Origin: an uncultured Bacteroidales bacterium
GTDB lineage: Bacteria > Bacteroidota > Bacteroidia > Bacteroidales > Paludibacteraceae
Length of the DNA: 64,000 nt
Direction: 5' to 3'
NCBI GenBank assembly: GCA_937891975.1
Contig: CALAUA010000015.1
Location: 145,378-209,377, forward strand
A model generated the notes under the pieces. The model searched no databases. It worked only from the letters and a program-made list of their open reading frames with translations, and was not told the origin of the DNA. Positions 5,088-27,922 of this stretch are shown here, piece by piece. Made by a program: the position numbers and the translations under genes. Positions within the stretch are counted from its first letter, which is position 1; the number at the start of each line of letters is the position of its first letter.

Positions 5088-5177
5088 CAAAATTACTGCT
5101 TTTTTATTACATATGCAAATAAATTTCACTTTTTTCGTCAAAATATTTGCGTGATTGCAAAAAAAGCAGTAATTTTG
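5088..5177. promoter_or_regulatory. Divergent promoter pair for tRNA-Gln and rplS
   Basis: CAAAATTA at 5088-5095 (minus) and TAATTTTG at 5170-5177 (plus). Both sit in the inverted copies aaaattactgctttttt / aaaaaagcagtaatttt. Confidence 0.55.
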
Positions 5178-5286: not shown

Positions 5287-5640
5287 ATGGATTTAATGAA
5301 AATTGCCGAAGAGGCATTCGCTGGCGAGAAGAAAGAGTTTCCAGCATTCGCTGCAGGTGATCAAGTGACTGTAGCTTATCGTATTAAAGAGGGTAACAAG
5401 GAGCGTATTCAGGAGTTCCGCGGTGATGTTATTTGCATCCACGGTAGCGGTGATAAGAAGCGTTTCACTGTTCGTAAGATGTCTGGCAACGTAGGTGTTG
5501 AGCGTATCTTCCCTATGGATAGCCCATTCATCGAGAAAATTACTGTTAACAAGTACGGTAAAGTTCGTCGCTCTAAATTGTACTACTTGCGTGCACTCAC
5601 TGGTAAGAAAGCTCGTATTCCAGAGCGCCGCGTAAAGTAA
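5287..5640 (+). CDS. rplS: 50S ribosomal protein L19
   Basis: The 117-aa translation is typical L19 ([36 protein letters not shown]). Confidence 0.95.
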
Positions 5641-5800: not shown

Positions 5801-5866
5801 ATCTACAGCCACTTTGTGGCGATCTACCATCTACAGGGCTTTAGCCCGATCTACAGCGCAGCGATC
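5801..5866. repeat. ATCTACAG word copies alternating with GC mini-hairpins
   Basis: atctacag-ccactttgtgg-cgatctacc-atctacag-ggctttagcc-cgatctacag-cgcagcg, immediately 3' of the giant gene 1 stop (5867-5869). Confidence 0.8.
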
Positions 5867-8800
5867 TTACAAGCGATGTCCCTGCGCGTCGAAAATGCCC
5901 TCCGCGGTACGGATGATGAGCTTACCGTCGATGAGGTATTTCTCAATGCCTTTCGCCTCATCGCCTACATTACCCACTCCTGTGGTCACATCCTTCTGTG
6001 GTTGGATATGGAGCGCAAAGCGATTCTCGTAACTACCAGCAGACAGAGTAATGGTATAATCGTCGAGCAAGAGGTTAGTGCGTGTATTTGTCTCGTAGTC
6101 AATGAGTTCTACCACCATACCCTCTGTGCCGTCAGGCATACGGAAGGTGTACTCACCTTCGGTGGCAATCTTCACGCCAACAGGCACGATAACCTCTTCC
6201 ATTGGTAATGTGTTACCCGCAAATGGGATGCCTTCAGACAATGTATAGATATTAGGTTTGCCGCTATTGAATACTTTGTTGAGGTCTTTGTTTTGGTCGA
6301 AGGTCGTTGTACCATCTTCATCTAAAGCTACAAATGTTTGGTCTTGCTTTTCGCCTTCTGTATTGGCAAGTTCGAGGCGCATGGTTACAGATGAACGTTC
6401 TGCTTGTGCTCTGCGAGGTGCCGCCAATGGTTCAGGCACCGTTTCATTGATAGGGTTCCAAGTAATAGTACCTGCAAACTGCACCATATAGCCGTAGAAG
6501 GATTTGTAGGTAGCAGTCTTACCATCTTCAGGAGTATAGTTATAACTTGTTCGGTTATTATTGTTGTCAAAAGTATAACTATATTGATAACGGAAACTTG
6601 GTGCTTCAGTTAATTCTTTATATTCTGGATCATTATCTTTATCATATTCTTTCACAGTCGCATTATTGTAACTGGTAGTACCAATCATCTTCCAGTTGCT
6701 ATCTTGCAAGTAGCGATTATGGAGAGTAAGAGTACATGGATGATTTGGGTAAGTGACAGTAAGTTGTTGCGTTGACTGCTGCTGCAAATCAAATCCACTA
6801 CCGATAGATGGGAAGTAGAGACGTAGCATAGAGATTATTTCTTTTTGTCCTTCTATAACATCGCCATTTGCATCAGTCTTATCCACTTCTATCTCATTCC
6901 ATGTGGCATTTTTCTTGTCAAATGCGAGCAGATATCCTTCACCTGCCTTCAACGTGTCCTTAGGAGACATCCACTCCCAGAATGTTGCCGTCTCTGCATA
7001 CCAACCCTTTTGAGCGCGAAGGTCACCGCGATAGCGTTGAATACCCCATAATTCCATATAACCATGCACACCAGATATACTACCTACCACGCAGTCAAAT
7101 GGTAAAGTGAACATATATTGCTCTTCATGACGTTCGTCTTCATTTGTACTACCACGGTGCAATTCCATTGCAAAGAATAGACTCTTTAAATTATTAATTT
7201 CACCATTGCCAGATAGTGTAATCTGTGGTACATTTTCATTCTCCTTGCGGATGAAAAGTACATCCGCATTTACTGTTTTATCTGTAGTAATAGTTAAGTC
7301 TGTTGCTATTTCCCAAACAGCTATGATTCGGTTCGTTTTGAAATCATACACTACGCGCACTTTATATACGCCATTATCCGTGCCCGAACCAATAACCGTT
7401 TTCTGAATAGGTGTGCTAGTTTCTTCGCCAGTTACTTCATTGATGCCGTAGCCCAATAAGTGGTTATACACAGTAGTATCAGTACGAGGTGATTTGGCTT
7501 CTACATACAGAGAAGCAGAAGGTGTTCCGTTGGTAATATTTACGTAAACATCTCGCTCATATACCCAGTTGCTGACATCGCGGAATTTATTGCCGTCATT
7601 ATTAGTATTGTTTCCGTATGGTAATTTTTTTGTACATTCCTTATCTGCATATGCATTGTCACAATGCAAATTGAGATAGCTTGCGTCTGCACTACCTTGC
7701 AGAACAGCTCGGCCGAAATAGTTGGTACGTGGGTCATAACCGAAGCGTACATTGATAACTTTACCTGTACCAACCTTGATATCGCCATATTCATTAGTAT
7801 TCTTATCTTGCAACAATTTGCCAGCTAGGTCATCGTTGTAGTCGTTTGCCACGCAGGCACTTACATCTTTACCATCGTAACCTCCAGAGTTCATAGCTTG
7901 TACCCAATAGTGGTTGTAGAACTCACCTTCGCGTGAAACAAATTCAGTGAATGTGCGGCTAGCTTTTTCGGAGTCTGTCCAATCATGAATAGAGTTCCAA
8001 CCCTTGTTGCTGATATCGCCATCTGTACCCCATGTACGGATGTAGAAGTTACCTGAATAAACTGCTACATTGGTAAGACCTGTACCATCTGCATTAAGTT
8101 TTGCTGTATAGACGTTTGACGCTGTGAATGTTTCAGGTGCGATTGTTGCATGCAAATTGCCGTTCTTATACAACATGACTACACCTGAACGGTAATTAAC
8201 TTCATCTTTACCAGGAGCAAAGAATGAGAGAATATCAGAGGTGCTGGTGACTATATTAGAAGAATACTCCTTACCATTTTGCATGACTATCTTCACTTGG
8301 TATTCATCTGCATCCTCCCAGCAATAATCGCCAGAACGTGAAATGGAAGGTTGATTCCCATATCCTTCATTTTTCATCGTATAACATCCATCTGTACTAA
8401 CATCTTTTACATCTGGTGATTTGCGCCAATTGTCATTCATGTTTTCATAAAACACCAAGAAACTTGTTTTTCCGTTAGTGTGTAATGGCACTTCCGCTTG
8501 TAGATATTTATACTTTCCAGACTCCTCATACACAAATTCCAATGCAATATCTGCATTATAACCAGAACTATACCAATAGTGTATCTTAATTTCGGAATTA
8601 TTGTTCCAACCAATATTGTCATATGTTCCTCCATCTGCTATTGGCACCTTCACTTGAATAGTGATGTGCGTATCTTTTTCTACGGTTACTTGGAATTTTT
8701 TGGTAACAGTTTCCTCGTGCAATGTGTAGTTCACAGTGATGGTGGTTGTGCCATCTTCGTGACCATATACGATGATGTTGGTTCCTGACATGATAGCTGT

Positions 8801-11800
8801 TGCAACAGTCGTGTTGGCGCTGCTAACTGTAGCTGTCACATCGCTCAGTTTATTACCCAAACTTACTTGTATAGAAGGTGAAACTATTTTTTGCTCGCCC
8901 TGTGTAAGAGTGATATTGTCAATATTACTTACTGCCAAATCACCAGGGCAATCGGCATTGGTAAGTGTGTAGTTGTTATATCCATTTTGATTAACCTTGT
9001 TATTACTTAATTGATAACATGTATTTTCACTTGGTATCTCGTAGTTGAAGGTTTGATTTGCATCGCTTCCGCCGTTTACGATAAAGTGGTCGTAGTATGG
9101 GTATTTCACCACGAATACGCGCCATGTACCAAAGTGTTGAGCAAAACTCTCACCAGGCCATTCGGTCTTCACATCTGCTGCACCAGCGTCGTCTCCGCGC
9201 CACATATATACATTGCTCAATATGCTATTGGGATCGTTGACCTTGATAGTGACTAATTTATAAACAGCCACTTCGGTACGTACCTCAAATACACGTCCTG
9301 CCACTTCTTCGGTTGTAGCGGTGAAGGTCAAGATACCTACTTGTTGAGCAGGTGTGTATTCGGTTGCATATTTTTCATTATAGGTTGTTGTTAATGTGGT
9401 TTCGTTAACCTTGATAGTTACGTTTCCAGTGTAACCATTGTAGGTGGCACTATATGATACTTCTACGTTGGTTCCTTGTTGTACTTTCTCTAAACTGATT
9501 TCGTCTCCAGGGGTGGTCAAAAGTACCATTTCAGGTGTCAAGACTTGTTGGAAGTAAACCGTGGTGGTAGCTTCGGTTCCCTTCTTTCCGTAAGAGTCTT
9601 TGTAGTAGGTGGTGATAGTGATAGGAGTAACCTCGGTGGTGATGTTCGTTAGGTCAAACGTATTGGCTGTTTGCTCTGTCTCACCTACTTTGTAGTAGGC
9701 AGTCAATCCTGCTACTTCTGTCAGTGGGGTTACTGTCAATCTTACCGTTTCATCGTTGTATAATTGGTAAGGGGTAGCTTGCGCTCCATCGCCTGCAATC
9801 CATTCATTGATTGTCTGCTCCTTATATACGCGCACTGCGGTGTATGTGACTGCAGGTGTTGTTGGTAGAGCGGGGTAGGTGATCTTCACTTGTGGTGCGG
9901 TCAAGGATATACCATCTGCTCCAGACCAACGGATATGAATGGTGTATGAACCTGCTTGCGTTGATTTGAATTTGATTGCGGAATTGGCATCTTTCCAAAT
10001 CTTTACCCAGTCAGCACATGATTGAAGGGCGCTGACAGAATTGCCGTATTCCGCAGAATTATTTGCATAGTCTTTTACTTTGAAACTGTATTCGGTATTT
10101 GCAGCCAAAGTAACGATGCATGCCCAACTGCCATCGCCTTGCTTGGTGAAATATGGATTGTTGCCAGGGAGGGTGTTGGTAGCATGTTTGCTAATCAATT
10201 GGTATCTCTCTGAGAAGGTCGCAACGAGTAATCCATCGCCTATTGTACCATTACCGCTAAGGGTGGTAGTATTGCCTGTGGTAGCAGAACTTACTGCAGG
10301 AGCAGTTGCAGTCCAACTTTGTGTATAATAACCCTCAGCAGGAGTTGCGGTAACAGTAACGGTGGTTTCCACACCCACACTTGCCTCTTGTGGTGATACT
10401 GTTCCCTTGTTATCATCGGATGATTTGATGTCAATAGAGGCTTTGTTTTCAACAAATACTGCTTTCACAGTTACATCCGCATTCACAGTGCAGGTGTAAG
10501 ATGGATCAGTCGATAATTGATTACCACTCCCGTCTGTCCACTTAGAGAAAGTGTAACCAGTATTTGCTTCTTGTGTAAATACAACACTTTTTCCCTTTAA
10601 CACATAGTCGCCAGAAGTAATTGCAACTCCATCCACTTTGGCAGTAACAGTCTTACCCCCCGTCCCCTTACTAAAGGTTACTTTGTATGCCTCTGGATAG
10701 GTTACGGAGAGGTTTTTATTAGAACTGTTGAATGTGAAAGTATAATTGCCTGCGACATCGGTTTTAAGAGTTAAATTATTGCTGCTTGTGCTTAATGTCT
10801 TACTTGACGATGCACGCGTAAGATCTCCACTGCTTGCACCATACCACTCTGAATCATATACAATCTTGAAAGTATATGTGGTGTTCGCGTTTAGGCTACG
10901 AGTGACAGTATAAGTACCCGAGCCAGTCATGTCAAATTCACCTGTATTAGTTGCGTCTGCTGGATTTGCAGCTGATATACGCAATTGATTATATACAGGC
11001 CATGTGACTTCTAAAGTTGGCTTTGAAGAATCATCATAGTTGAGGTGGAAAGTATATTTACCTGCTAGATAAGGCTTAAAGCGTATGTTGTTACTAGCGC
11101 TGGTGGAAAGCGTGAGGTTATTGTTCTCTTTGGTTAGCCAATAATGATCACCACCAGATCCCCAACCTAACCATTTTTTATTGTCATCGGAGCCTGCTGC
11201 ATTATAAATTTTAAATTCCCATTGATTGTCATTAGGAGTTACTTTACTTTGAGGGACATCAATTTCCCAATAAACATCATTAGAATTCGCGTTCCCAGAA
11301 TGCTTTTTCATCATTGTATTTTGATTAGCATTCCATCCTTCAGAAAAAGGTCCAGCATTATCACCTTGTACGTAGTATGTACTTGTTAAATCTTCTGCAT
11401 AATTTGCAACGACTTCAGCAGCTTTGCTATCGCCATTAGAGCGAACAGTGATGTTTGTTGCATCAGCTGCTCCGCCATCGGTGCGGGTACAATTGGTAAG
11501 CGTCCAACCTGTAAAAGTGTAGCCATTGCCTGCTGCAGTAGCTGTGACTGTGGCTGTGGTTTCATAACCTATTGAATTTACTGATGCTGTTGGAACTGCA
11601 TAGCCAGGGTCGCCTGCATCGTATTTATTGGAGGTTGTCAGCGTGGACATGTTTTCCGTAGCAGAAGCAGTCACTATAACCGAACCATTTTTTACGGTTA
11701 CGGTTGTGTTTGCTGTTGTTGCGTTGCCGAATGTAGCGTTTGCTGCTGGATTAGCAGTCCAAGTGCTGAAAGTGTAACCCGTTTTAGGTGTGGCTGTGAT

Positions 11801-12904
11801 ATTGTAGGTGCTTCCTAATGTTACAGGGTCAGTAGAACCACCAACGGTGTTTATTCCATCGCCTGCCAGTACGGTCAAGGAGTGGGTTGCTGTTGAGCGG
11901 AAGTTGGCTTTCAATGTACCTGCGGCAGTTGCAGTGATGGTTGTAGAAGCAGCTGTCGTATTTGCTACAACAACACCTCCTGTAGCTGTCCAATTAACAA
12001 ATTCGTAATTTGCATCTGGAGTGGCAGTGACTGCCGTCGTTGTGACTTGTCCAATAGTCTTATTTCCTAAAGGAGATACTGTTCCGCCAGAGCCTGCTGA
12101 GATAGTGACAGCATATGTATTCTCTGTCCAAATAGGAGTAATTGTTACATTGCTGGTAAGTGTATAGGTTTGAGAAGCGATGTCTGCTGCAGCAATAGTA
12201 GTAGTTGTACTACCATTATTGATTTGTACACCGCCAAAGGTATATCCTGTAGAGGCAGATGCGCTGAATTTAAGAACAGTGAGGTGAATTTTGCTTGCAC
12301 CAGTAGCAATAGTGTTGTTGTCGTAGTCCTTTACGGTTAGTGTGCCACCTGTAGGGCTATTGATTGTGACAGTATAGTCTGATTTAGTAGAAGTAGACCA
12401 ATTGTATACAGTACACTTCGTATCAAAGTGCGTAACTGAAGTAGTCCCATTTGCCTTATAAATTGTAGTTGCGTTCCAAACAGATGTGCGAATATTTGTC
12501 ACATTATTGTTGCCATGGTACACAAATTTATATACATTTTCACCGTTAGAGTCCCACCATTTCTCTTTGCTGACTACCCAACCTGATGCTCCATCCCATG
12601 AATTTCCATTATTCCATCCTTTTGCCAATTTCCAAAGGTACTGTGTACCAGAAACACGAGTCATGGCATAGCAAGATGTATGAGAATCATGACCGATATA
12701 AACGTAACAGTTCGTCCATTTTGATGTGGAGTTATCAAAGTATAAATCCACATTTGATTGGTTGATAGCCGCCCACGCATTACTAACTCCCATTAGTAGG
12801 AGAATGAGGATAGCAGTTGTTCGTATACCTTTGGTATATCCTTGTAATAGGTTAAGAAATTGTTTCGCCTTCTTCTCGGCGCAATTTGTAAATGTTTTAT
12901 TCAT
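5867..12904 (-). CDS. Giant cell-surface protein with divergent InlB B-repeat modules and a T9SS-like C-terminal tail
   Basis: Uninterrupted 2345-aa ORF. Leader MNKTFTNCAEKKAKQFLNLLQGYTKGIRTTAILILLLMGVSNAWA. Many ~75-aa modules of type Y.VT....GGTVSP.......TATP..GY.F..WT. Tail ends KYLIDGKLIIRTAEGIFDAQGHRL. Confidence 0.85.
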   Translation of the reverse strand: MNKTFTNCAEKKAKQFLNLLQGYTKGIRTTAILILLLMGVSNAWAAINQSNVDLYFDNSTSKWTNCYVYIGHDSHTSCYAMTRVSGTQYLWKLAKGWNNGNSWDGASGWVVSKEKWWDSNGENVYKFVYHGNNNVTNIRTSVWNATTIYKANGTTSVTHFDTKCTVYNWSTSTKSDYTVTINSPTGGTLTVKDYDNNTIATGASKIHLTVLKFSASASTGYTFGGVQINNGSTTTTIAAADIASQTYTLTSNVTITPIWTENTYAVTISAGSGGTVSPLGNKTIGQVTTTAVTATPDANYEFVNWTATGGVVVANTTAASTTITATAAGTLKANFRSTATHSLTVLAGDGINTVGGSTDPVTLGSTYNITATPKTGYTFSTWTANPAANATFGNATTANTTVTVKNGSVIVTASATENMSTLTTSNKYDAGDPGYAVPTASVNSIGYETTATVTATAAGNGYTFTGWTLTNCTRTDGGAADATNITVRSNGDSKAAEVVANYAEDLTSTYYVQGDNAGPFSEGWNANQNTMMKKHSGNANSNDVYWEIDVPQSKVTPNDNQWEFKIYNAAGSDDNKKWLGWGSGGDHYWLTKENNNLTLSTSASNNIRFKPYLAGKYTFHLNYDDSSKPTLEVTWPVYNQLRISAANPADATNTGEFDMTGSGTYTVTRSLNANTTYTFKIVYDSEWYGASSGDLTRASSSKTLSTSSNNLTLKTDVAGNYTFTFNSSNKNLSVTYPEAYKVTFSKGTGGKTVTAKVDGVAITSGDYVLKGKSVVFTQEANTGYTFSKWTDGSGNQLSTDPSYTCTVNADVTVKAVFVENKASIDIKSSDDNKGTVSPQEASVGVETTVTVTATPAEGYYTQSWTATAPAVSSATTGNTTTLSGNGTIGDGLLVATFSERYQLISKHATNTLPGNNPYFTKQGDGSWACIVTLAANTEYSFKVKDYANNSAEYGNSVSALQSCADWVKIWKDANSAIKFKSTQAGSYTIHIRWSGADGISLTAPQVKITYPALPTTPAVTYTAVRVYKEQTINEWIAGDGAQATPYQLYNDETVRLTVTPLTEVAGLTAYYKVGETEQTANTFDLTNITTEVTPITITTYYKDSYGKKGTEATTTVYFQQVLTPEMVLLTTPGDEISLEKVQQGTNVEVSYSATYNGYTGNVTIKVNETTLTTTYNEKYATEYTPAQQVGILTFTATTEEVAGRVFEVRTEVAVYKLVTIKVNDPNSILSNVYMWRGDDAGAADVKTEWPGESFAQHFGTWRVFVVKYPYYDHFIVNGGSDANQTFNYEIPSENTCYQLSNNKVNQNGYNNYTLTNADCPGDLAVSNIDNITLTQGEQKIVSPSIQVSLGNKLSDVTATVSSANTTVATAIMSGTNIIVYGHEDGTTTITVNYTLHEETVTKKFQVTVEKDTHITIQVKVPIADGGTYDNIGWNNNSEIKIHYWYSSGYNADIALEFVYEESGKYKYLQAEVPLHTNGKTSFLVFYENMNDNWRKSPDVKDVSTDGCYTMKNEGYGNQPSISRSGDYCWEDADEYQVKIVMQNGKEYSSNIVTSTSDILSFFAPGKDEVNYRSGVVMLYKNGNLHATIAPETFTASNVYTAKLNADGTGLTNVAVYSGNFYIRTWGTDGDISNKGWNSIHDWTDSEKASRTFTEFVSREGEFYNHYWVQAMNSGGYDGKDVSACVANDYNDDLAGKLLQDKNTNEYGDIKVGTGKVINVRFGYDPRTNYFGRAVLQGSADASYLNLHCDNAYADKECTKKLPYGNNTNNDGNKFRDVSNWVYERDVYVNITNGTPSASLYVEAKSPRTDTTVYNHLLGYGINEVTGEETSTPIQKTVIGSGTDNGVYKVRVVYDFKTNRIIAVWEIATDLTITTDKTVNADVLFIRKENENVPQITLSGNGEINNLKSLFFAMELHRGSTNEDERHEEQYMFTLPFDCVVGSISGVHGYMELWGIQRYRGDLRAQKGWYAETATFWEWMSPKDTLKAGEGYLLAFDKKNATWNEIEVDKTDANGDVIEGQKEIISMLRLYFPSIGSGFDLQQQSTQQLTVTYPNHPCTLTLHNRYLQDSNWKMIGTTSYNNATVKEYDKDNDPEYKELTEAPSFRYQYSYTFDNNNNRTSYNYTPEDGKTATYKSFYGYMVQFAGTITWNPINETVPEPLAAPRRAQAERSSVTMRLELANTEGEKQDQTFVALDEDGTTTFDQNKDLNKVFNSGKPNIYTLSEGIPFAGNTLPMEEVIVPVGVKIATEGEYTFRMPDGTEGMVVELIDYETNTRTNLLLDDYTITLSAGSYENRFALHIQPQKDVTTGVGNVGDEAKGIEKYLIDGKLIIRTAEGIFDAQGHRL

Positions 12905-12975
12905 GATTTTTGTTATTTTAGTCTGTAGAATTTTAGTTTCACGCTTATTATGATGTTTTAGTATGCCTTTTATAC

Positions 12976-13959
12976 TTAAATGTAATTTTGAGCAATGTTC
13001 TCTATTATCTGTGCTAAGGCAGATGAATATTCAAAGTCCATATCAAGAAGCAGTGGTATTGGTACATTATGCTTGTAATAATATGGATGAGGGTTAGGAG
13101 CCAATATTATTTCGTAGTTATACCAAAAATACAATTCAAATAATTTATTGTAAGTTTCACCACGTGTTCTACAAGCGGTAAGTATAATATCGCATCCTAT
13201 CTGCTCAAAATCATCTATGGATTCAGGCATACGAGAATCTGGATCTCCTTGGCTCTCAACACCTATTAAACAATTATTTATATTAACAACACCTTGAACA
13301 TCCCCATCATCTTTAATAAGGTTATTAGGATACTTATTTGATAATATATTCCACACTCCTTTGATTGAGGTAGATTTGCCCATATATCCATGACCACAAT
13401 CAGCAATAATATAACGAGGTCTACTATAATCAACAGGGAGCTCACGCATCGTATTCTCAATTTGAAAGCCCCTATTATTTACCTTTAATTCATACCATTT
13501 ATGATCCAAGTTATCCAAAAGTTGTAGGTAACATGTAAATCCCAATGCTTCAGAAGAAAACGTATGTAATTGTTCTTTACTCCACTGGATTCCTACGATA
13601 TTGGCCACACGCCGTAAAGCATCAACGAGTTGTTCTGGTTCCCATTCTGCATAGTTTTGCAGTATGTTTGCTACTTCCTTAGCAAATGCAATAACTTTTT
13701 GAGGACGAGACAATGCTTCTTGTATTTCCTCTTTGAGCACCCCTGGAATATTTTCTAATTCTTGTTGATTAGCTACAATATGTGGTTGTTTATCCCCGTA
13801 CAAAGGTATTTCTATTTCTACCTTTTTTCGTTTCCCGTTTACAAGTATCGGCTGTTTTGTTTTCTTATGAATATGAACCGAAGTAATATCCATCGGACGA
13901 CCATCTCCCCTCTGATGGCTATCAATGCGCAGTATCTGATTATTAATTAATGGTTTCAT
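12976..13959 (-). CDS. Hypothetical protein with a C-terminal P-loop (Walker A) domain, AT-rich
   Basis: 327-aa ORF 72 nt upstream of giant gene 1 on the same strand. GHGYMGKST fits GxxxxGK[ST] and CLIGVESQGD is Walker-B-like. A sampled 60-nt line counted 19 G+C, clearly below neighbouring genes. Confidence 0.5.
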   Translation of the reverse strand: MKPLINNQILRIDSHQRGDGRPMDITSVHIHKKTKQPILVNGKRKKVEIEIPLYGDKQPHIVANQQELENIPGVLKEEIQEALSRPQKVIAFAKEVANILQNYAEWEPEQLVDALRRVANIVGIQWSKEQLHTFSSEALGFTCYLQLLDNLDHKWYELKVNNRGFQIENTMRELPVDYSRPRYIIADCGHGYMGKSTSIKGVWNILSNKYPNNLIKDDGDVQGVVNINNCLIGVESQGDPDSRMPESIDDFEQIGCDIILTACRTRGETYNKLFELYFWYNYEIILAPNPHPYYYKHNVPIPLLLDMDFEYSSALAQIIENIAQNYI

Positions 13960-14146
13960 ATTTTTTCTTTTCTCCCTTTTGGGTGGTTTTGCTTTTATCT
14001 TATTTCTTTTATCTCTTGTTTTTATCTCTCAAATTAACGCACATGAATTGTCATTGATTTTACATCCTTATTTATGTCCGCAGAACTCACTCTTAAAATC
14101 ACAACTCCCTCATTATCAACACTCATTCTTTAAAACTATGTTAGGA

Positions 14147-14189
14147 CATTTGTGGCATTTTTGGCATTTGTGGCATTTTTGGCATTTTG
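14147..14189. repeat. TTTGGCATT / TGTGGCATT word array
   Basis: catttgtggcatttttggcatttgtggcatttttggcattttg. Confidence 0.85.
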
Positions 14190-14260
14190 AAATTCCTGAA
14201 AATCCCTATATTCCCGTTTCCCTAATTATCCTTTTCTACTTTTGCAAAGCTCTTGCTTTA

Positions 14261-14303
14261 CTATGTCATTACTATGTCATTACTATGTGATTACTATGTT
14301 ATT
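14261..14303. repeat. 11-nt word array CTATGTCATTA, four copies
   Basis: ctatgtcattactatgtcattactatgtgattactatgttatt. Confidence 0.9.
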
Positions 14304-14328
14304 CCGCTACCCTTGCGCTACCTTTACG

Positions 14329-14486
14329 CTATCTTCAGGGTATCTTCAGGGTATCTTCGGGACATCCTATATATATCCCTTATACATCCCTTGGTTATCC
14401 TATGCTGCTCCTTCGGTGAGGTTCCGATGAGATTCCAATCAGGTTCCGATGAGGTTCCGATGGAAGTAAGGGGCATGTAAGGGGCA
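14329..14486. repeat. Composite repeat, left copy (inverted partner at 18699-18834)
   Basis: Three GTATCTTCRGG units, then a ~45-nt unique core (gacatcctatatatatccc..ggttatcctat), a variable 11-nt word module (GAGGTTCCGAT), then ggaagtaaggggcatgtaaggggca. Confidence 0.85.
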
Positions 14487-14490
14487 AATA

Positions 14491-14913
14491 TTATGCCGTC
14501 TGCTTCTTGCGTAACCTAATAACCACCGCCGCCACTGCTGCAAACAATAGCAATATCCATGGTTCGCCTACAGGGCTGCCACCTTGCGTACCAGGGTCAC
14601 CACCTCCGGCAAGATTCTTCCTCCCACTTATTCCTTTTGGACCGCTATTGCTATTGCCACTCTCGCTGGGCGGAGTGTCATTAAACGGCTCATACACAGT
14701 GCCTTGGTATGCCTTGTACTCGGTGGAGAGTGCCTCTGCATTACCCATCACACGATAGTCGCTCTTCATCGCACCACCATACGCTCCCCACTGCTGTGAG
14801 GAAGCGGTCGGTTGTGTATAACCGCCAACTTGATAAGAGTTAGATGCATTGTAGGATTGAGCGTAAACCTCTACGCCAAAAGCAAATAAAATCAGTAAAC
14901 ATGCGCATTTCAT
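14491..14913 (-). CDS. Small secreted Gly/Ser/Pro-rich protein with a PEP-CTERM-like C-terminal anchor (expressed copy)
   Basis: ORF trimmed to MKCACLLILFAFGVEVYAQ at 14913. The C-terminus PVGEPWILLLFAAVAAVVIRLRKKQTA is motif + TM helix + basic tail. A -7 box lies upstream at 15007-15014. Confidence 0.65.
   Translation of the reverse strand: MKCACLLILFAFGVEVYAQSYNASNSYQVGGYTQPTASSQQWGAYGGAMKSDYRVMGNAEALSTEYKAYQGTVYEPFNDTPPSESGNSNSGPKGISGRKNLAGGGDPGTQGGSPVGEPWILLLFAAVAAVVIRLRKKQTA
14657..14817. repeat. Inverted repeat IR-L of the putative inversion switch
   Basis: Reverse complement of 15342-15502 with about 8 mismatches by eye. Lies inside the CDS. Confidence 0.85.
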
Positions 14914-15006
14914 AACTGCGCCAAGAGAGTGTGTCTGTTCAGTATTATTAACTAGCATAATTGTTAGTGTTTTTTATCAAATTTAAAGTTTTCACATAAA
15001 GCGTGG

Positions 15007-15014
15007 CAAAGTTA
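15007..15014 (-). promoter_or_regulatory. -7 box (TAACTTTG on the minus strand) for the small secreted protein gene
   Basis: CAAAGTTA about 90 nt upstream of the ATG at 14913. Located inside the segment bracketed by IR-L and IR-R. Confidence 0.5.
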
Positions 15015-15231
15015 CAACATTTTTTTGAATCACACAAGTATTACTATGAAATTTATTTCATTCTTTCTTGCAAACGATTGCAAACAGGGATAGTTACGTA
15101 CAAAAAAAGGAGGCATCGCCTCCTGTGATTTCAGTTAGATTTGGATAGAAAAGAGGGTTATTGAAGTTCATTACACTACAATGGTATATCTGTATAAAAA
15201 CAGTGATTTGAGCAAATTTTTCATACAAAAA

Positions 15232-15319
15232 GTGCTCAAAATAAGAAAATTTATCTCATTTGAGCACAAACAAGACAACAAAATTGCTCAAAACGAGGAA
15301 TTTTATCTCGTTTGAGCAC
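15232..15319. promoter_or_regulatory. Two tandem copies of a ~36-nt hairpin element
   Basis: gtgctcaaa-(18 nt)-tttgagcac and ttgctcaaa-(27 nt)-tttgagcac, with a half-site tttgagcaaa at ~15208. Confidence 0.5.
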
Positions 15320-15713
15320 GAAAGCGCGCGTTTTTTGTATCACACAACCGACCGCTTCCTCACAGCAGTGGGGAGCGTATGGTGGTGCGATGAAGAGCGA
15401 CTATCGTGTGATGGGTAATGCAGATGTACTCTCAACTGAGTACAAGGCATACCAAGGCACTGTGTATGAGCCGTTTAATAACACTCCTCCAAGCGAGGGT
15501 GGAAGTGGTCCTAGAGGCATCTCTGGCAGACGCAATGGCAACTCTTGGAGTGGTCCTGGTATGGGTGAAGGCAATGGCGGTGAAGAAGGTGATGACCCTA
15601 ATCGTGATGAAGGTGAGCCTGTAGATGGTCCCGTTGGCGAACCCTTTGTGCTGTTGCTGTTTGCGGCAGTGGCGGCACTTTTCGTGGCACGTCGCCAACG
15701 CCAAGCAGCATAA
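15312..15713 (+). other. Promoterless, signal-peptide-less alternative 3' cassette of the small secreted protein
   Basis: Shares TQPTASSQQWGAYGGAMKSDYRVMGNA..LSTEYKAYQGTVYEPFN and the PVGEPFVLLLFAAVAALFVARRQRQAA tail type with 14491-14913. It has only a TTG start, no leader peptide, and a different middle. Confidence 0.6.
15342..15502. repeat. Inverted repeat IR-R of the putative inversion switch
   Basis: Reverse complement of 14657-14817. Confidence 0.85.
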
Positions 15714-15974
15714 CCCTAGCTGAAACACTCGCATGTTTATCAGTTGCTGTTGTGGTTAGCACAATCTTCCAACAGATAAACAACGCACCCAACGAATTGA
15801 CAATCATTGACTCCTTAATTGACAATCATTGTCTTTAAAAAATAACCCCGTCGCTCCGCGACAAAAAGCGATCTTTGAAACACTGTATTTTGTAGAGTAT
15901 AGCAACGCACTTTGCAAGTTTATTTTCTCGAAAATATTTTTGCAAAAATCCTTGCGTATATGCATTTTTTTTAG

Positions 15975-15982
15975 TACCTTTG
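15975..15982 (+). promoter_or_regulatory. -7 box TACCTTTG for the Bro-N gene
   Basis: Canonical TAnnTTTG 20 nt upstream of the ATG at 16003. Confidence 0.55.
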
Positions 15983-16002
15983 CACCATAAAACATAATAG
16001 CT

Positions 16003-16848
16003 ATGGAGCAAAGTGAAATCAAATTATTCGAAGGACAAAACATCCGTTACGTTTGGGATGAACAGAAGGAGCAATACTTCTTCTCTGTGGTAGATGTCAT
16101 CCAAGTGTTGACCGATAGCCCACGCCCTCGCAAGTATTGGAACGCGCTGAAAACCAAGCTGCAAGCAGAAGGAAGTGAAGTGTCCCAAAATATGGGACAG
16201 TTGAAATTGCCTGCTCTAGATGGCAAGATGCGTCTTACCGACGTGGCTACAACGGAGCAGTTGTTGCGCCTCATTCAGTCGGTGCCGAGCAAGAAAGCTG
16301 AGCCATTCAAGTTGTGGTTGGCTGAGGTCGGTCGTCAGCGATTGGAGCAGTTGCAAGACCCCGAGCAGAGTATAGAGCAGGCGATTCGTGATTACCGTCG
16401 CTTGGGGTATTCGGAGGCATGGATTAACCAGCGTATCAAGACCATTGAGGTACGCAAGGGCTTGACCGATGAATGGAAACGTGGCGGTATGCAGGAGGAG
16501 CGCGACTATGCGATTTTAACAGACATTATCTCCAAGGCATGGAGTGGAATGACGACTCGCGAGTATAAGCAGCACAAGGGACTGCGCAAAGAGAGTTTGC
16601 GCGATAACATGACCAATGTTGAGCTGATGCTCAATGGTCTTGCGGAGGCGGCTGCTACGGAGTTGAGTCAGCGCGAGAACCCACAAGGTTTTAGCGAGAA
16701 CGCGCAGATAGCGCAACGCGGTGGCAATGTAGCCCATGTGGCTCGTGAGCAACTGGAGCATGAGTTGGGAACTACGGTGATTTCTGACAAACGCGCGCTG
16801 CATTTCACGACTCCGCCCGATGAATTGCCATTGAGCACCGAAGAGTAA
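16003..16848 (+). CDS. Bro-N domain protein (antirepressor / DinD-like)
   Basis: N-terminus FEGQNIRYVWDEQKEQYFFSVVDVIQVLTDSPRPRKYW and EPFKLWLAEVGRQRLEQLQDPE match the widespread Bro-N / DinD-like family as I recall it. Confidence 0.65.
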   Translation: MEQSEIKLFEGQNIRYVWDEQKEQYFFSVVDVIQVLTDSPRPRKYWNALKTKLQAEGSEVSQNMGQLKLPALDGKMRLTDVATTEQLLRLIQSVPSKKAEPFKLWLAEVGRQRLEQLQDPEQSIEQAIRDYRRLGYSEAWINQRIKTIEVRKGLTDEWKRGGMQEERDYAILTDIISKAWSGMTTREYKQHKGLRKESLRDNMTNVELMLNGLAEAAATELSQRENPQGFSENAQIAQRGGNVAHVAREQLEHELGTTVISDKRALHFTTPPDELPLSTEE

Positions 16849-16881
16849 TTTGATTGCATAGCAATCTAACGGCTATATTCT

Positions 16882-16922
16882 ACAAGTTCTTAGTCTTTAC
16901 GGATTAGGAACTTGTTTGTTTT
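16882..16922 (+). terminator. Rho-independent terminator after the Bro-N gene
   Basis: acaagttcttagtc-tttacg-gattaggaacttgt followed by ttgtttt. Confidence 0.55.
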
Positions 16923-17145
16923 ATAACTATGAGCAAACAAAATACAATATAACAACGGCGTTGCCCCTTACTCCCGTAGGGGCTTCATAGGAACTCACCG
17001 AAGGGGCAAGGGACTTTGACCAGGGATGAATAGAGCAAAAACATAAACGCGGAGCTACTAACGTGAGCGAAGCGAACCTAAGAGCGATCTTTGACATAGT
17101 GGAATTACTAAAAATGATTCTGGCATTTTGATGACACAAAACGCC

Positions 17146-17226
17146 AAAGTCGTTCATAAAAGTGTGTCATTTTATGCAAAAGTCGTTCATGAAAATGCGA
17201 AAAATCACAAAAAGTCGTTCATAAAA
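17146..17226 (+). repeat. Three phased direct repeats AAAGTCGTTCATRAAA
   Basis: gtcgttcat at 17149, 17182 and 17214 (32-33-nt spacing), just upstream of the -7 box at 17261. Confidence 0.8.
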
Positions 17227-17260
17227 ATGTAAATCATTTGCATATATCATTTATTTTCAG

Positions 17261-17268
17261 TACCTTTG
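17261..17268 (+). promoter_or_regulatory. -7 box TACCTTTG for the DUF4143 ATPase gene
   Basis: Canonical TAnnTTTG 35 nt upstream of the ATG at 17304. Confidence 0.55.
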
Positions 17269-17303
17269 CGGCGAATTTAAAAACATATCAATAAAACATA
17301 CAT

Positions 17304-18605
17304 ATGGAACGGCTAATAATTGAAGAATTGTTGCAATGGAAAACCAGTCCACGACGCAAGCCATTGATACTAAATGGCGCGCGACAAGTTGGCAAGACAT
17401 GGATTCTAAAGCATTTTGGAGAAATGCATTATGACAATGTAGCATATATCAACTGCGATAAGGAGTCGCTGGCTGCCAAATTGTTTGAAGATTATGATGT
17501 CAAACGCATCGTTCAAGCATTGGAAGCGATGACCAACACCCAGATTGTTGCAGGTAAAACACTCATTATCATAGATGAGATTCAGGAGGTTCCACGAGGA
17601 CTGCATGCCCTAAAGTATTTTGCTGAAAACGCACCCGAGCAACACATCGCTGTTGCGGGTTCACTGTTGGGACTATTGCTACACCAAGGCGAGAGTTTTC
17701 CTGTTGGCAAAGTGAATATGTTGCAAATGCATCCTATGACTTTTCTGGAATTTCTCAAAGCAATAGGAGAGGATAAGATGTACCAACAGCTCCTGAATAG
17801 AGAATGGAGCGTAACGAACACAGTACACGAAAAGATTGTAAAGCATTTGCGCATGTATCTCTATGTCGGAGGAATGCCAGAGGCGGTACAGGCGTATTGT
17901 GACAATGTGCCATTGCGTGAGATTCGCAGCATTCACAACGAAATTCTCACGGCATATATCAACGACCTTTCGAAGCATGCCCCTAAAGAGCAGGTGGTTC
18001 GTATTACGCAAGTATTCCGATCAGTTCCAACACAAATAGCTAAAGAAAACAAGAAGTTTGTATTTGGAATGCTCAAAAAAGGCGCAAGAGCCAAGGATTT
18101 TGAATTGGCTATCCAATGGTTGATGGACGCTGGACTTGTGCATAAAGTCTGTCAGGTTAGCAAACCAGAAGCGCCATTGACCTTTTATGAAGAGGCAGAT
18201 GCGTTCAAACTGTTCTTGTTGGATTGCGGATTATTAGGTGCAATGAATATGACAGATGCCACAGAAGCCATGCTGACAGATAACATCTTTGAGGAGTACA
18301 ATGGTGCGTTGACAGAACAATTGGTACTTCAAGAGCTAAAGTGCTTGCCAAACTTGCCTGTGTATTACTATAACAAACCAAATTCGCAACAAGAGATTGA
18401 TTTTGTGATTGAGATTAAAAATCGTGCTATTCCTGTAGAAGCCAAAGCAGGAGAGAACTTGCAAGCGAAATCGTTGAAACAATTCATACAGGAGAATAAA
18501 TCAGAAAAGGCAATCAAGACCTCTCTCAAACAATACAAAGGCAACGAGATTATAGACAATGTACCTCTATATGCATTGTATTGTTATCTTCAGGAACCAC
18601 ACTGA
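17304..18605 (+). CDS. AAA-family ATP-binding protein (AAA_14 + DUF4143 type)
   Basis: Walker A in LILNGARQVGKTW, Walker B in LIIIDEIQ. Overall layout is typical of the DUF4143 ATPases common in Bacteroidota. Confidence 0.75.
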   Translation: MERLIIEELLQWKTSPRRKPLILNGARQVGKTWILKHFGEMHYDNVAYINCDKESLAAKLFEDYDVKRIVQALEAMTNTQIVAGKTLIIIDEIQEVPRGLHALKYFAENAPEQHIAVAGSLLGLLLHQGESFPVGKVNMLQMHPMTFLEFLKAIGEDKMYQQLLNREWSVTNTVHEKIVKHLRMYLYVGGMPEAVQAYCDNVPLREIRSIHNEILTAYINDLSKHAPKEQVVRITQVFRSVPTQIAKENKKFVFGMLKKGARAKDFELAIQWLMDAGLVHKVCQVSKPEAPLTFYEEADAFKLFLLDCGLLGAMNMTDATEAMLTDNIFEEYNGALTEQLVLQELKCLPNLPVYYYNKPNSQQEIDFVIEIKNRAIPVEAKAGENLQAKSLKQFIQENKSEKAIKTSLKQYKGNEIIDNVPLYALYCYLQEPH

Positions 18606-18680: not shown

Positions 18681-18698
18681 TTAGGTTGGCCCTTGTAT

Positions 18699-18834
18699 TG
18701 CCCCTTACATGCCCCTTACTTCCATAGGGACTTCATAGGGACTTCGCCGAAGAATCAGTATAGGATAACCAAGGGATGTATAAAGGATATATATAGGATG
18801 TCCCGAAGATACCCTGAAGATACCCCGAAGATAG
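18699..18834. repeat. Composite repeat, right copy (inverted partner of 14329-14486)
   Basis: Same ends and unique core as the left copy. The internal word module is GAAGTCCCTAT instead of GAGGTTCCGAT. Ends 70 nt upstream of the giant gene 2 start. Confidence 0.85.
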
Positions 18835-18903
18835 GGCATTTGGTCATTGGCTTGACCTCTGCTCACAAAACAAAATAATAACTAGACTAAAATAACAAAA
18901 ATC

Positions 18904-21900
18904 ATGAATACAACATTTACAAATTACGCCGAGAAGAAGGCGAAACAAATTCTTAATCTATTACAAGGCTATACCAAAGGTATACGAATAACTGCCATCC
19001 TCATTCTCCTACTCATGGGAGTTAGTAATGCGTGGGCGTGGACAGCGCACTTTTCTCTTATGGGCGATCCTGTTGGTAATAATTGGCAGAATGATCGAGA
19101 TTTCATGATTAACACAAGTACAGGAACTACGGACGAGTGGTATATCTATGCATATGTAGCAAATAATCAATATTTTGCTTTAAACAATGGAAGTAATCAG
19201 TACGGACCTTCAAGCAACGGTCAGGCTATAAAAAACGGCACAGGTGGAGGTCAGGGCAATTATAATACAAATTCATGGAAATTCACAGGAACTAGTGGAA
19301 TCATAAAGATTTGCTGTGCGGAAAGTAATGACCGTGAATGGTATCCATGGGTATGGGTAGAAGAATCCGCACCAACTATCAAATTTAAACATCCATGGAA
19401 TGGTGGTAGTTGGAGTGAACAAACAGCAACAAAACAAAATGACGGGACATATACCTACGATGGTAAATATGGAAATAACAAAGGCTTTAATGCAGGTCCT
19501 TCTGGTAAGTACAAATATAACGCAAGTCAAACAACCGTAGAAGGTTCACCCGCTACAGGAGATATGTGTAGATTTATTTGGAATCCTGTTGGTTATGTAC
19601 AAGGAGGAGCAGAAACAAAAGCATCTGGAACATTTAAAATTGTTAAACTTTGTTCGCTCACCTATGATGGCAATGGAAAAACAGGAGGAACAGTACCTTC
19701 TGCTACTAACAACCAACTATATAACACATCTATTACATTATCATCCGAAACTTTAACTAAGGCTGGTTATACACATACTGGTTGGAATACCAAAGCAGAT
19801 GGCACAGGAACCCATTATGACAAAGGAGCATCCTACACATTAACAGCAGCGAGTACCACTCTCTATGCAGAATGGACATCTACCGCTCCTACCATAACCA
19901 TTTCTACTGAAAAAACATACTTAAGAACAGCTTATGATAAATTAATTTTAAAGATTTATTACTCAAATATCCCAGAAGGATATACTTATCGTGTCCATGC
20001 AACTCCAGAGGCTTACTTCAATGGTAATGAGAATGGGGATAATGTTGATCGGGTGAGTATTTCAGGTAATGGAAACACTACTTTTGTATCTAATGGATAT
20101 CTTGCCCAGAATCAATATACTGTAGAAGTGATATTATGGAATAATGGTGGTGCAACAGATATAATATCAAATTCCCTTTCCATCACGGTAGAACCTCAAT
20201 TATCTGTTCAAACACGAGCTCGTTTTAATAATCAAATAAACACAACTGCCGCAGAGCACCCACAACCAGAATGGGTACATCCTTCGCAGAATGTAGGAGA
20301 AACAATTACAGCTAGCGAACCGAAACCAGGTTATACATTTGCGGGTTGGACTGCTAATGATGATAACCTTATTAAGTTTGATAATCCTAATTCACTTACA
20401 ACTATTGTTAAATCGAAAGTAAATGGTAATAACAATGCAGTGGCTTACGCCAACTATACCCGTGTAGAAACCTATGCCTTTATACAAGGTCGTTTTCGTG
20501 TGAATAGTGCATCACGAAATCAGATGACATATACTTATGATGATGGTGGTCAATGGAACGAAGGGAGCACTAATATCCAAATGGAATATGATGATACAAA
20601 CTCACGTTTCTATCTTCACACATATATGAAGCCTAAAGAGCTAACAGAGCCCCATGGTACTAATTGTGGTGAATGTAAGCCTTATTTTTATATTAAAACA
20701 AGTACCTCTAGTAGTTCTCTTACGAATGCTACACCATATTGGTCTTCATCCAAACAATATATAATAGAAGCGGGAAAAGAGAACAAAAAGGAATTAACGA
20801 ATTCTTCTAGCAATGTGGTTAACAATAACTTACGCTTTAACACTCAAGATGAATCAGGTTATGTAATATTATATTTCGATCAACAATACATCTGGTATGA
20901 GTTGGAGCATAGATTAGAATACGATGCCAACGGTGGTACAGGTAGTGCACCAAGCAGAACGTATCATCTTAAAGGTTCCACAACTACTACCGCTTCGGAC
21001 AACATATTCACTCGTGACGGCTATGATTTCCAGGGTTGGAACACCAAAGCAGATGGTACGGGCAATCAGTATGAGGCAGAAGCAAACATTACGATAGAGG
21101 CAAACACAACTCTCTACGCACAATGGGCAAAACCAACATTCACCGTTACACTAGACCCACAGGGTGGTACAGACGGAACTACTTCTGTTGAAGCAACTTA
21201 TGGAGAAGAAATGCCCGAAGCAACGATGCCTCAGCGTGAGGGATTTACTTTTGGCGGATATTTCACAGAGACTAATGGCGGTGGCACTCAGTATTACAAT
21301 GCTGATGGCTCTAGTACGAAGAATTGGGATATCAAAGAACCTAAAACCCTCTACGCCAAATGGATACAACAATATGTGATTGTGGGTAATGGTAAAGGTA
21401 GTTGGCTGAATGGTGCTAACTGGATAGAAAGTGTGATAGCAGATGATAGCTTTGACGTTACCAAGCAGTCAAGCAATATTATTGATGGTAGTGTTACCTA
21501 CTCTGCTTGTCCTGCTGGACTGAAGAACTTCCGCATTGTGCCATGGGGTAAATGGGATACAAATCATGGTAAAGAGCAGCTAACTAGTTGCAATGTACCT
21601 TCCTACACCAATGAAGACAATAATATTGCGTTCGTAACTGTGGCGGAAGCTGCCATCACAATCGGATTTGATGGCACGAATATTACAGTACAAGTAGATT
21701 ATGATGCTGAAGATTTAGCCAATGTAAAAGCCGAAGTCGTCGCAGACACAAAACGAATGTTCTATTTTGGAGACGAGTTAACAGATCGATCAAGGCAGTA
21801 TTTATACGTTAATGAACTTGAAAATAGCACAGATAACCACGTTGTTACAGAAACGAAAGGATTACTTTTAGAAGGTGTAGGTGCACAAAAGTGGCTAGCT

Positions 21901-27897: not shown

Positions 27898-27922
27898 GAT
27901 TGCTGCCCAAAAACCTCGCTGA

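Follow-up and report, generated by a model that had tools for sequence, protein, structure and literature searches.

Positions 14491 to 15713 of a 64,000-nucleotide (nt) stretch of DNA from an uncultured Bacteroidales bacterium (Paludibacteraceae; contig CALAUA010000015.1) appear to hold a DNA inversion switch, with two cassettes, that acts on a small and lineage-specific envelope protein, and general homologous recombination between long repeats would drive the inversion. We give this reading, mechanism included, a probability of about 60%. The first part of it, that the locus is an inversion switch, is very probable, and for such a switch a homology-driven mechanism has the odds slightly on its side. 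The whole 64,000-nt stretch is called the window here, and all coordinates are window positions.

The proposed switch would work as follows. A 524-bp module that carries the promoter, the start codon, the signal peptide and the first mature residues would lie between two opposed, 5'-truncated copies of the remainder of the gene. Recombination between two 176-nt repeats would turn the module over and join its single N-terminus in frame either to the left tail, which is the state of the window, or to the right tail; the unused tail would stay behind a non-coding leader. The two products would have a common signal peptide and a conserved middle, and they would differ in the C-terminal linker and the membrane-anchor tail. 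The exchange would occur by general homologous recombination between the long repeats, probably with conversion tracts, rather than by a dedicated adjacent invertase. We infer that the flip recurs often enough to serve phase or antigenic variation.

The evidence comes from the comparison of the window with public assemblies (ENA, Logan, NCBI and JGI), contig against contig, and the orientation evidence is between strains. Exact-sequence look-ups with the window's own gene products gave no match. A search for the protein family returned 223 proteins at E <= 1e-3. A scan of a genome collection gave 12 loci, all of them in Paludibacteraceae or Bacteroidales metagenome-assembled genomes (MAGs), with an opposed pair in L004 only, and a scan of the JGI metagenomes with a degenerate boundary motif gave a single locus, L037. 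Public proteins and related loci are cited below by their P and L numbers.

The two arms of the repeat lie in the coding sequence of two opposed copies. The left arm (14642-14817, minus strand) is inside the expressed-looking gene, at about codons 48-105, and the right arm (15342-15517, plus strand) lies at the start of the silent cassette. The arms are 176 nt long, 91% complementary and separated by a spacer of 524 nt; among the inverted repeats of the window, this pair ranks second in length. Homology begins abruptly at ACACAACCGACC, and the first 83 nt of the repeat are identical, synonymous sites included. Two sub-motifs of the repeat occur exactly twice each in the window, compared to an expectation of 0 from shuffles. 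Past the 176 nt, the homology is weaker yet reaches the stop codons of both open reading frames (ORFs), and a second, weaker repeat block (14528-14574 on the minus strand and 15630-15676; 47 nt, 74%) encodes the GEP motif and the membrane helix of the C-terminal anchor. The initial annotation of this DNA had described arms of 161 bp with about 8 mismatches and a perfect run of more than 80 nt. There are indeed 8 mismatches within those 161 nt, at repeat positions 83, 85, 92, 95, 138, 146, 149 and 156, and the perfect run and the full repeat have the lengths given above. It had also placed the left arm inside a minus-strand gene that it took to be expressed, and the ORF list agrees with this position.

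That gene (cassette LC, 14491-14958, minus strand) encodes 155 amino acids (aa) when read from the ATG at 14958; a second possible start is the ATG at 14913. Its 155-aa product is identical to the public protein P0001. The protein consists of a signal peptide, a disordered middle rich in Gly, Ser and Tyr, a C-terminal SPVGEP motif, a membrane helix and a basic tail. An AlphaFold2 run with a 44-sequence alignment gave helices only at residues 12-36 and 133-154, with a mean pLDDT of 55; these are predicted to be the signal helix and the membrane helix, respectively, and the region between them is predicted to be disordered. The tail (..SPVGEP-LLLFAAVAAV-RLRKKQTA) resembles the PEP-CTERM pattern, that is, a PEP motif, a membrane helix and an Arg-rich end. 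However, an NCBIfam scan at E <= 1 returned no PEP-CTERM model and only a sub-threshold match to Loki-CTERM (12.7 bits versus a cut-off of 19.9), and because the curated sorting-signal models miss this tail, the protein is not filed as PEP-CTERM here. Neither cassette product matches any Pfam or NCBIfam family. Among the 12 loci of the genome collection, the family is confined to Paludibacteraceae or Bacteroidales MAGs, several of which are from ruminant digestive tracts (roe deer colon, yak omasum and sheep rumen).

The silent cassette (RC, 15312-15713, plus strand) is a 5'-truncated paralog with the leader ..STKARVFCI; it lacks a signal peptide and does not begin with an ATG. Its middle is common with the expressed protein, and this is followed by a different linker, rich in Gly, Glu and Asp, and a different anchor tail (..ARRQRQAA). 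The first description of this ORF as having the same middle and lacking both a signal peptide and an ATG holds for its start. As a statement about the entire ORF it goes too far, since an internal ATG exists and gene callers give a 107-aa product from it (P0137). The right ORF was also considered as an independent second gene. This was rejected for the missing signal peptide and the missing ATG at its start; the substitutions in its leader are not biased toward synonymous ones, with too few sites for this to be firm.

Flipping positions 14818-15341 in silico yields an in-frame protein of 170 aa in which the right-hand tail follows the signal peptide and the shared middle, and it differs from a natural protein, P0012, at only 6 of 170 residues. 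Natural fusions of the N-terminus to RC are found in the public proteins P0012 (locus L001), P0133, P0135 (L031) and P0139 (L038). The reciprocal products, in which the silent leader MSTKARVFCITQPT is followed by the left-hand tail, are found as well (P0009 and P0123). Four tail types have been recovered in both states. RC is expressed in P0012, P0133 and P0139 and silent in the window and in P0130, and LC is expressed in P0001-3 and silent in P0009 and P0123. The GFINPSDPGEEQ tail type is expressed in P0006 and P0140 and silent in P0018 and P0142, and for the fourth type the expressed and silent forms are P0014 and P0042.

The comparison of entire loci adds the orientation of the flanks. For example, L038, a MAG from NCBI that belongs to the same species (93-97% nt identity), is collinear with the window over 15338-16970, which includes the right cassette, its flank and the Bro-N gene, and again over 18718-25598, the right-hand giant gene. 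Between these, the promoter and N-terminus (15121->14657) and the silent leader with its hairpin segment (15494->15166) are reversed relative to the window. L031 and L001, also of the same species, have the right flank of the window and a promoter/N-terminus that is inverted and joined to RC; L031 is collinear with the window through Bro-N into the giant gene as well. L025/L002 display the other side of the exchange, with the left flank of the window and LC (90-96% identity) joined to the silent leader and a different tail expressed (P0008). Altogether, the module points toward Bro-N in L001, L004, L031, L037 and L038 and away from it in the window, L015-19 and L028-29. These natural loci and fusions, like the in-silico flip, bear out the original proposal that turning the core over fuses the same N-terminus in frame to the other cassette.

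Such products could also arise if the silent copy donated sequence to the expression site by non-reciprocal gene conversion, as pilS does to pilE, or through an assembly artefact at the repeat. The mosaic proteins P0121, P0122, P0134 and P0138 and a reassorting AEAL/ADVL marker inside the repeat do match the tracts that conversion would be expected to leave. However, conversion does not move flanks, and in L038, L031 and L025 the module is inverted relative to several kb of collinear flank. Because the locus-level comparisons show the module reversed against collinear flanks, they indicate physical inversion and not sequence copying alone. The artefact was rejected because the 83-nt perfect run is shorter than the k of 141 inferred from the 'k141_' names that many contigs bear and because the same structures occur in independent ENA, Logan, NCBI and JGI assemblies. 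As a substitute for inversion, these explanations are thus highly improbable, and conversion may well act alongside it.

The same design, a promoter-bearing core flanked by two opposed cassettes, is also found in species B (L032-35), the roe-deer MAG L004 and the JGI contig L037, and so it is present in at least two further Paludibacteraceae lineages. The L004 protein is 51% identical, and the layout has been kept between species whose proteins are only about 50% identical. The silent copies are intact ORFs in the window, L025, L031, L038, L032-35, L004 and L037, which argues against a decaying duplicate. A frame-broken right-hand copy in related strains had been named at the outset as something that would overturn the switch; the silent copies of the relatives are in frame.

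These results bear on the possibility that the locus is a static relic, in which a partial duplication gave the inverted right ORF, and strains differ in orientation through rare, old rearrangements without a role in phase variation. Several observations would suit a relic or count against the inversion switch. An exact look-up of six predicted flipped products of the window strain (two crossover positions, long and short gene calls) found none of them in a collection of 15 billion proteins. The absence of the exact flipped products says little, because the window strain is represented there by one contig only. Both orientations within one sample or strain were not seen among the assemblies compared, and all of the orientation comparisons span diverged strains, which differ from each other by about 3-8% nt. 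The silent cassette has been lost in many strains (L015-24 and L028-30), so that the switch is dispensable, and what is left is a single cassette and a deleted 'empty slot'. Finally, within 5 kb of the L003 locus, whose protein is 77% identical, there is no inverted partner. On the other hand, a relic would not be expected to have silent copies that are intact and in frame in every two-cassette locus of at least three lineages, nor arms that share 83 identical nt, synonymous sites included, while their distal parts are strongly diverged, nor four cassette types each found in both states, nor a layout that outlasts the divergence between species. A static relic is consequently improbable, and an active inversion switch is the preferred reading.

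The lost cassettes leave a distinctive trace. In strains with P0011 (16 contigs) or P0007, the 'empty slot' keeps the leader and 12 nt from the beginning of the repeat; a stop codon and a 3' flank of the cassette type come directly after these. The junction ..GGGACAAAAATTA|GGTCGGTTGTGTGATACAAAAAAC.. is identical in three contexts (L001 at about 150-185, L015 at about 5100-5130 and L028 at about 5600-5625). Strains with this allele bear a single cassette. The allele may have arisen by deletion through CGACC microhomology with a tail ending in ..KKQTT*.

The anchor tails reassort independently of the linkers at the block that encodes GEP and the membrane helix, as in the mosaics P0121 and P0122 compared to P0003. 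In the mosaic members of the family (P0121, P0122, P0134, P0138 and P0140), a given linker is paired with more than one anchor tail, and P0006 and P0140 share a tail but have N-termini from two different species. Such pairings of linkers, tails and N-termini imply that cassettes are exchanged between strains and species.

As to the mechanism, the initial annotation had reported no recombinase gene in the window, and a Pfam scan of every plausible ORF of at least 120 aa came to the same result. Neither is there a recombinase within 6-8 kb of the related loci L015-L036 and L038, as judged from the precomputed Pfam labels of their called genes. It is therefore probable, from the gene content, that the locus has no dedicated invertase of its own. 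Further evidence comes from a marker at repeat positions 83-95, where the encoded motif is either AEAL or ADVL. This marker is unlinked both from the core side (N-terminus or silent leader) and from the cassette side, and seven of the eight possible combinations were seen. Exchanges must then have occurred both proximal and distal to the marker, in at least two intervals. The dispersed exchange points, together with the long repeats and the lack of a local invertase, favor general homologous recombination, and the dispersed exchange points would lend indirect support to a dependence of the RecA type.

Part of the evidence speaks against a homology-driven flip and for the same switch being operated by a tyrosine or serine invertase that is encoded elsewhere in the genome and acts at a site on the proximal boundary, for which GTTTTTTGTA[TC]CACACAA[CT]CGACCGCTTC would be the candidate. 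The long repeat would then be shared coding sequence and nothing else. The boundary of homology at ACACAACCGACC is sharp, and the proximal block is the best conserved one in every lineage. Here it is 83 nt and perfect, and in species B and L004 near-perfect identity is confined to this proximal end (47-49 nt at 96%), with later coding blocks at 82-84%. Both leader types share the 12 nt that adjoin the boundary on the silent side, and the boundary and about 45 nt of the silent-side leader are conserved across species, which would suit a recombinase site. The 'empty slot' alleles retain exactly the leader and the first 12 nt of the repeat. In addition, invertases encoded elsewhere in the genome are common in Bacteroidales, as PMC2268961 and PMC9881135 also note, and Bacteroides has invertases that act at a distance (PMC2268961, introduction). 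However, such an enzyme would be expected to exchange strands at one point, and the reassortment of the marker puts exchanges on both sides of repeat positions 83-95; the anchor tails reassort at the second block as well. A dyad-symmetric core site was looked for at the repeat boundary, and only weak 4-nt symmetries were found. No recombinase is present in the 64 kb or beside the Pfam-labelled related loci. An invertase acting in trans is accordingly a possible explanation that we do not favor, and homologous recombination between the long repeats stays the preferred mechanism.

For a homology-driven switch the best analogue is the sap locus of Campylobacter fetus, in which a promoter-bearing segment between opposed paralogs with long repeats is inverted in a RecA-dependent manner and without a dedicated invertase. 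The window locus likewise has a promoter on the invertible segment, opposed paralogs, long repeats and no dedicated invertase that could be found. The difference is that the sap repeat is the 5' end of complete genes, so that entire genes are swapped, whereas here the 5' coding end travels and the 3' part is exchanged. The invertible promoters of Bacteroides (fin sites and Mpi, and invertons of the PhaseFinder type) have intergenic repeats of about 10-30 bp and turn operons ON or OFF. They resemble the window locus in the bacterial order, in the flipping of a segment with a promoter and in that their recombinase can be far away; they differ in that the repeats of the window are 176 nt and lie in coding sequence, and the outcome would be a change of protein sequence. 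The first comparison made for the locus, with a shufflon, is apt only in a loose sense. A strict shufflon of the R64 type has several segments, sfx repeats of about 19 bp, the tyrosine recombinase Rci and PilV variants as products, whereas the window has two cassettes only, one long repeat pair, no Rci-type recombinase and no PilV or other Pfam domain.

By design, the closest system is vsa of Mycoplasma pulmonis. As in the vsa, vsp and vpma systems of Mycoplasma in general, a single promoter and 5' coding end would be recombined onto silent 5'-truncated genes. The vsa locus switches its expression site by DNA inversion (PMC2268961, citing Bhugra 1995 and Shen 2000). It yields a single product at any time, and the variation lies in the C-terminal part of a protein exposed on the surface; both features would apply here. 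In contrast, M. pulmonis uses short specific sites and an adjacent tyrosine recombinase, HvsR, and the group as a whole a short site and a locus-encoded tyrosine recombinase (HvsR, Xer1 or Mbr), whereas the window has 176-nt coding repeats, no recombinase nearby and, in the family, exchange in at least two repeat intervals. Furthermore, vsa has many silent genes and the window two cassettes, and the protein family, the anchoring chemistry and the phylum are unrelated.

By its structure, the locus fits among the gene-altering programmed inversions, or partial intergenic invertons (PMC9881135, PMC10028968). One arm lies in an active gene and the other in an opposed, truncated paralog, and the flip keeps the frame and gives an alternative full-length protein. 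The available passages of Milman et al. 2023 (PMC9881135) and Chanin et al. (PMC10028968) describe the same arrangement, with the second arm in a shorter, opposed, promoterless paralog and with alternative protein variants as the result, and the size asymmetry between gene and pseudogene and their opposed orientation fit the window locus. A recombinase gene is usually adjacent in such inversions, although this is not obligatory, and the window has none there. The class is defined by both orientations coexisting in one clonal population; for the window locus the two orientations come from different strains. As enriched families the passages of PMC9881135 list HsdS, Type II restriction-modification enzymes, PilV, phage tail fibres, SusC/TonB-linked proteins and one DUF protein; the small VGEP-anchored family is absent from these passages, which do not cover the full tables. 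Compared to the inversions that they describe, the window locus is unusual in that the promoter and the 5' coding end ride on the invertible piece.

The pneumococcal hsdS genes (SpnD39III / Spn556II) also have inverted repeats in paralogous coding sequences, there of several lengths (PMC4948785). They differ from the window locus in that they encode restriction-modification specificity subunits, have a tyrosine recombinase in the locus and keep the constant N-terminal part and the promoter outside the invertible segments. Deleting psrA, the local recombinase gene, leaves some of their inversions in place, and deleting recA had no visible effect on any of them (PMC4948785). The inversions that persist without psrA imply that inversions at coding repeats do not always need a nearby invertase.

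The general kind of system is thus known, and what is added is the protein family and the layout. On the evidence of the public assemblies, an uncharacterised protein family and the uncultured Paludibacteraceae of gut and rumen would join the targets of coding-sequence inversions. The layout is unlike the usual one, since the promoter and the signal peptide would be on the flipping piece and the variable tails outside it, and what varies would be the C-terminal linker and anchor tail of an otherwise disordered protein. Inverton finders that are tuned to short repeats and adjacent recombinases could miss such a layout. Because it has no nearby invertase, the locus may be one that switches through homology or by an enzyme acting in trans.

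The invertible core, or expression module (14818-15341, both strands, 524 bp), carries on its minus strand terminator-like hairpins, the promoter, the 5' untranslated region, the start codon, the signal peptide and the first mature residues, with the silent-side leader at its right end. The -7 consensus of Bacteroidetes promoters is TAnnTTTG. A pattern scan places a box of this type, TAACTTTG, at 15007-15014 on the minus strand, 49 nt upstream of the ATG at 14958, and by the consensus it would act as the promoter. It had been taken for the only -7 box of the core, which is not the case; there are two further TAnnTTTG matches, TAAATTTG at 14978-14985 (minus strand) and TAGATTTG at 15136-15143 (plus strand). 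Just upstream of the promoter and on the same strand, a terminator-like hairpin with a T-run (AGGAGGCGATGCCTCCT, 15098-15124, minus strand) probably insulates the module from read-through. A hairpin array with the motifs TTTGAGCA(C) and (G)TGCTCAAA occupies 15196-15322 on both strands and includes a 43-nt direct repeat (15228-15270 and 15280-15322). By eye it has about five TTTGAGCA / TGCTCAAA motifs in alternating orientation at a spacing of about 17-20 nt, and it adjoins the silent leader. It is strongly structured on the minus strand (z = -5.0), and it has been kept in L002/L025, L015, L028 and L038 and is absent from the L001/L031 core type. The array could be an insulator or terminator or a protein-binding site. 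An Rfam search of 13900-16100 returned sub-threshold noise only.

The cores of several relatives bear cargo genes. For example, those of L031 (6884-7801) and L037 (699-1622) have DUF3791, DUF3990 and a 72-aa ORF, and those of L038 (7391-7621), L015 and L032 have DUF3791 alone. The L004 core (9245-9765) has an 89-aa ORF that by eye looks like a YoeB/Txe toxin and an 86-aa ORF upstream of it. The window core has the hairpin array only and no cargo gene.

Directly 3' of LC is a repeat-rich flank (14314-14487, both strands), and a copy of it in inverted orientation precedes the right-hand giant gene (18698-18838). The element contains 11-nt tandem units of the AGGTTCCGATG type (14419-14461) and AAGGGGCA repeats, and fragments related to it follow other cassettes and empty slots in L001, L015, L025 and L028. 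The switch lies within a 6-kb segment that is bounded by a second inverted repeat (12770-12924 and 18884-19038; 155 nt, 95%), which is conserved in L025, L028, L031 and L038. The arms of this outer repeat are the 5' ends of two divergent genes for giant repeat proteins (2345 and 2997 aa; Flg_new / Flg_new_2 domains), each with about 20 nt ahead of the gene and about 135 nt of coding DNA. The 3' ends of the giant genes likewise form an inverted repeat (5858-6234 and 27530-27906; 377 nt, 82%). Through inversion at the outer repeat, the two giant genes would trade promoters and N-termini. When strains were compared for this repeat, the giant-gene bodies were too divergent for orthologs to be recognised, except those of L031 and L038 compared to the right-hand giant gene of the window.

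Between the giant genes is a variable gene island whose content is strain-specific (12976-13959, 16003-16848 and 17304-18605 in the window, and the flanks of L015, L025, L028 and L038). Its genes encode Bro-N, AAA_14/DUF4143 ATPases, ParE and YafQ toxins, GmrSD_N, Mrr_cat, DUF6530 and DUF8327, and the window island also has a 327-aa ORF without a family. Going by their Pfam names, several of these families are commonly tied to phage defence or toxin-antitoxin pairs. The position of the switch between giant adhesin-like genes and in a defence-rich region hints at selection by phage or host.

All of these features could be joined in a wider and rather doubtful picture. The region would be a recombinase-free, homology-driven variation island in which a mobile expression module, often with toxin-antitoxin-like cargo, toggles among a population-wide library of tail cassettes. 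The best-conserved protein motifs, TQPTASSQQW.. and YKAYQGTVYEPF, would persist chiefly because recombination uses their DNA as a substrate, and the entire 6-kb segment would be nested in a second switch at the 155-nt, 95% repeat, which would reshuffle the variants of the small and giant proteins together.

Upstream of the Bro-N and AAA_14 genes there are direct repeats of 27-32 nt with 78-81% identity (15864-15983 and 17080-17269). Both copies of the 32-nt repeat end in the -7-box-like TACCTTTG, and a triple 22-nt repeat is present at 17143-17229. These direct repeats look like duplicated promoter or operator modules.

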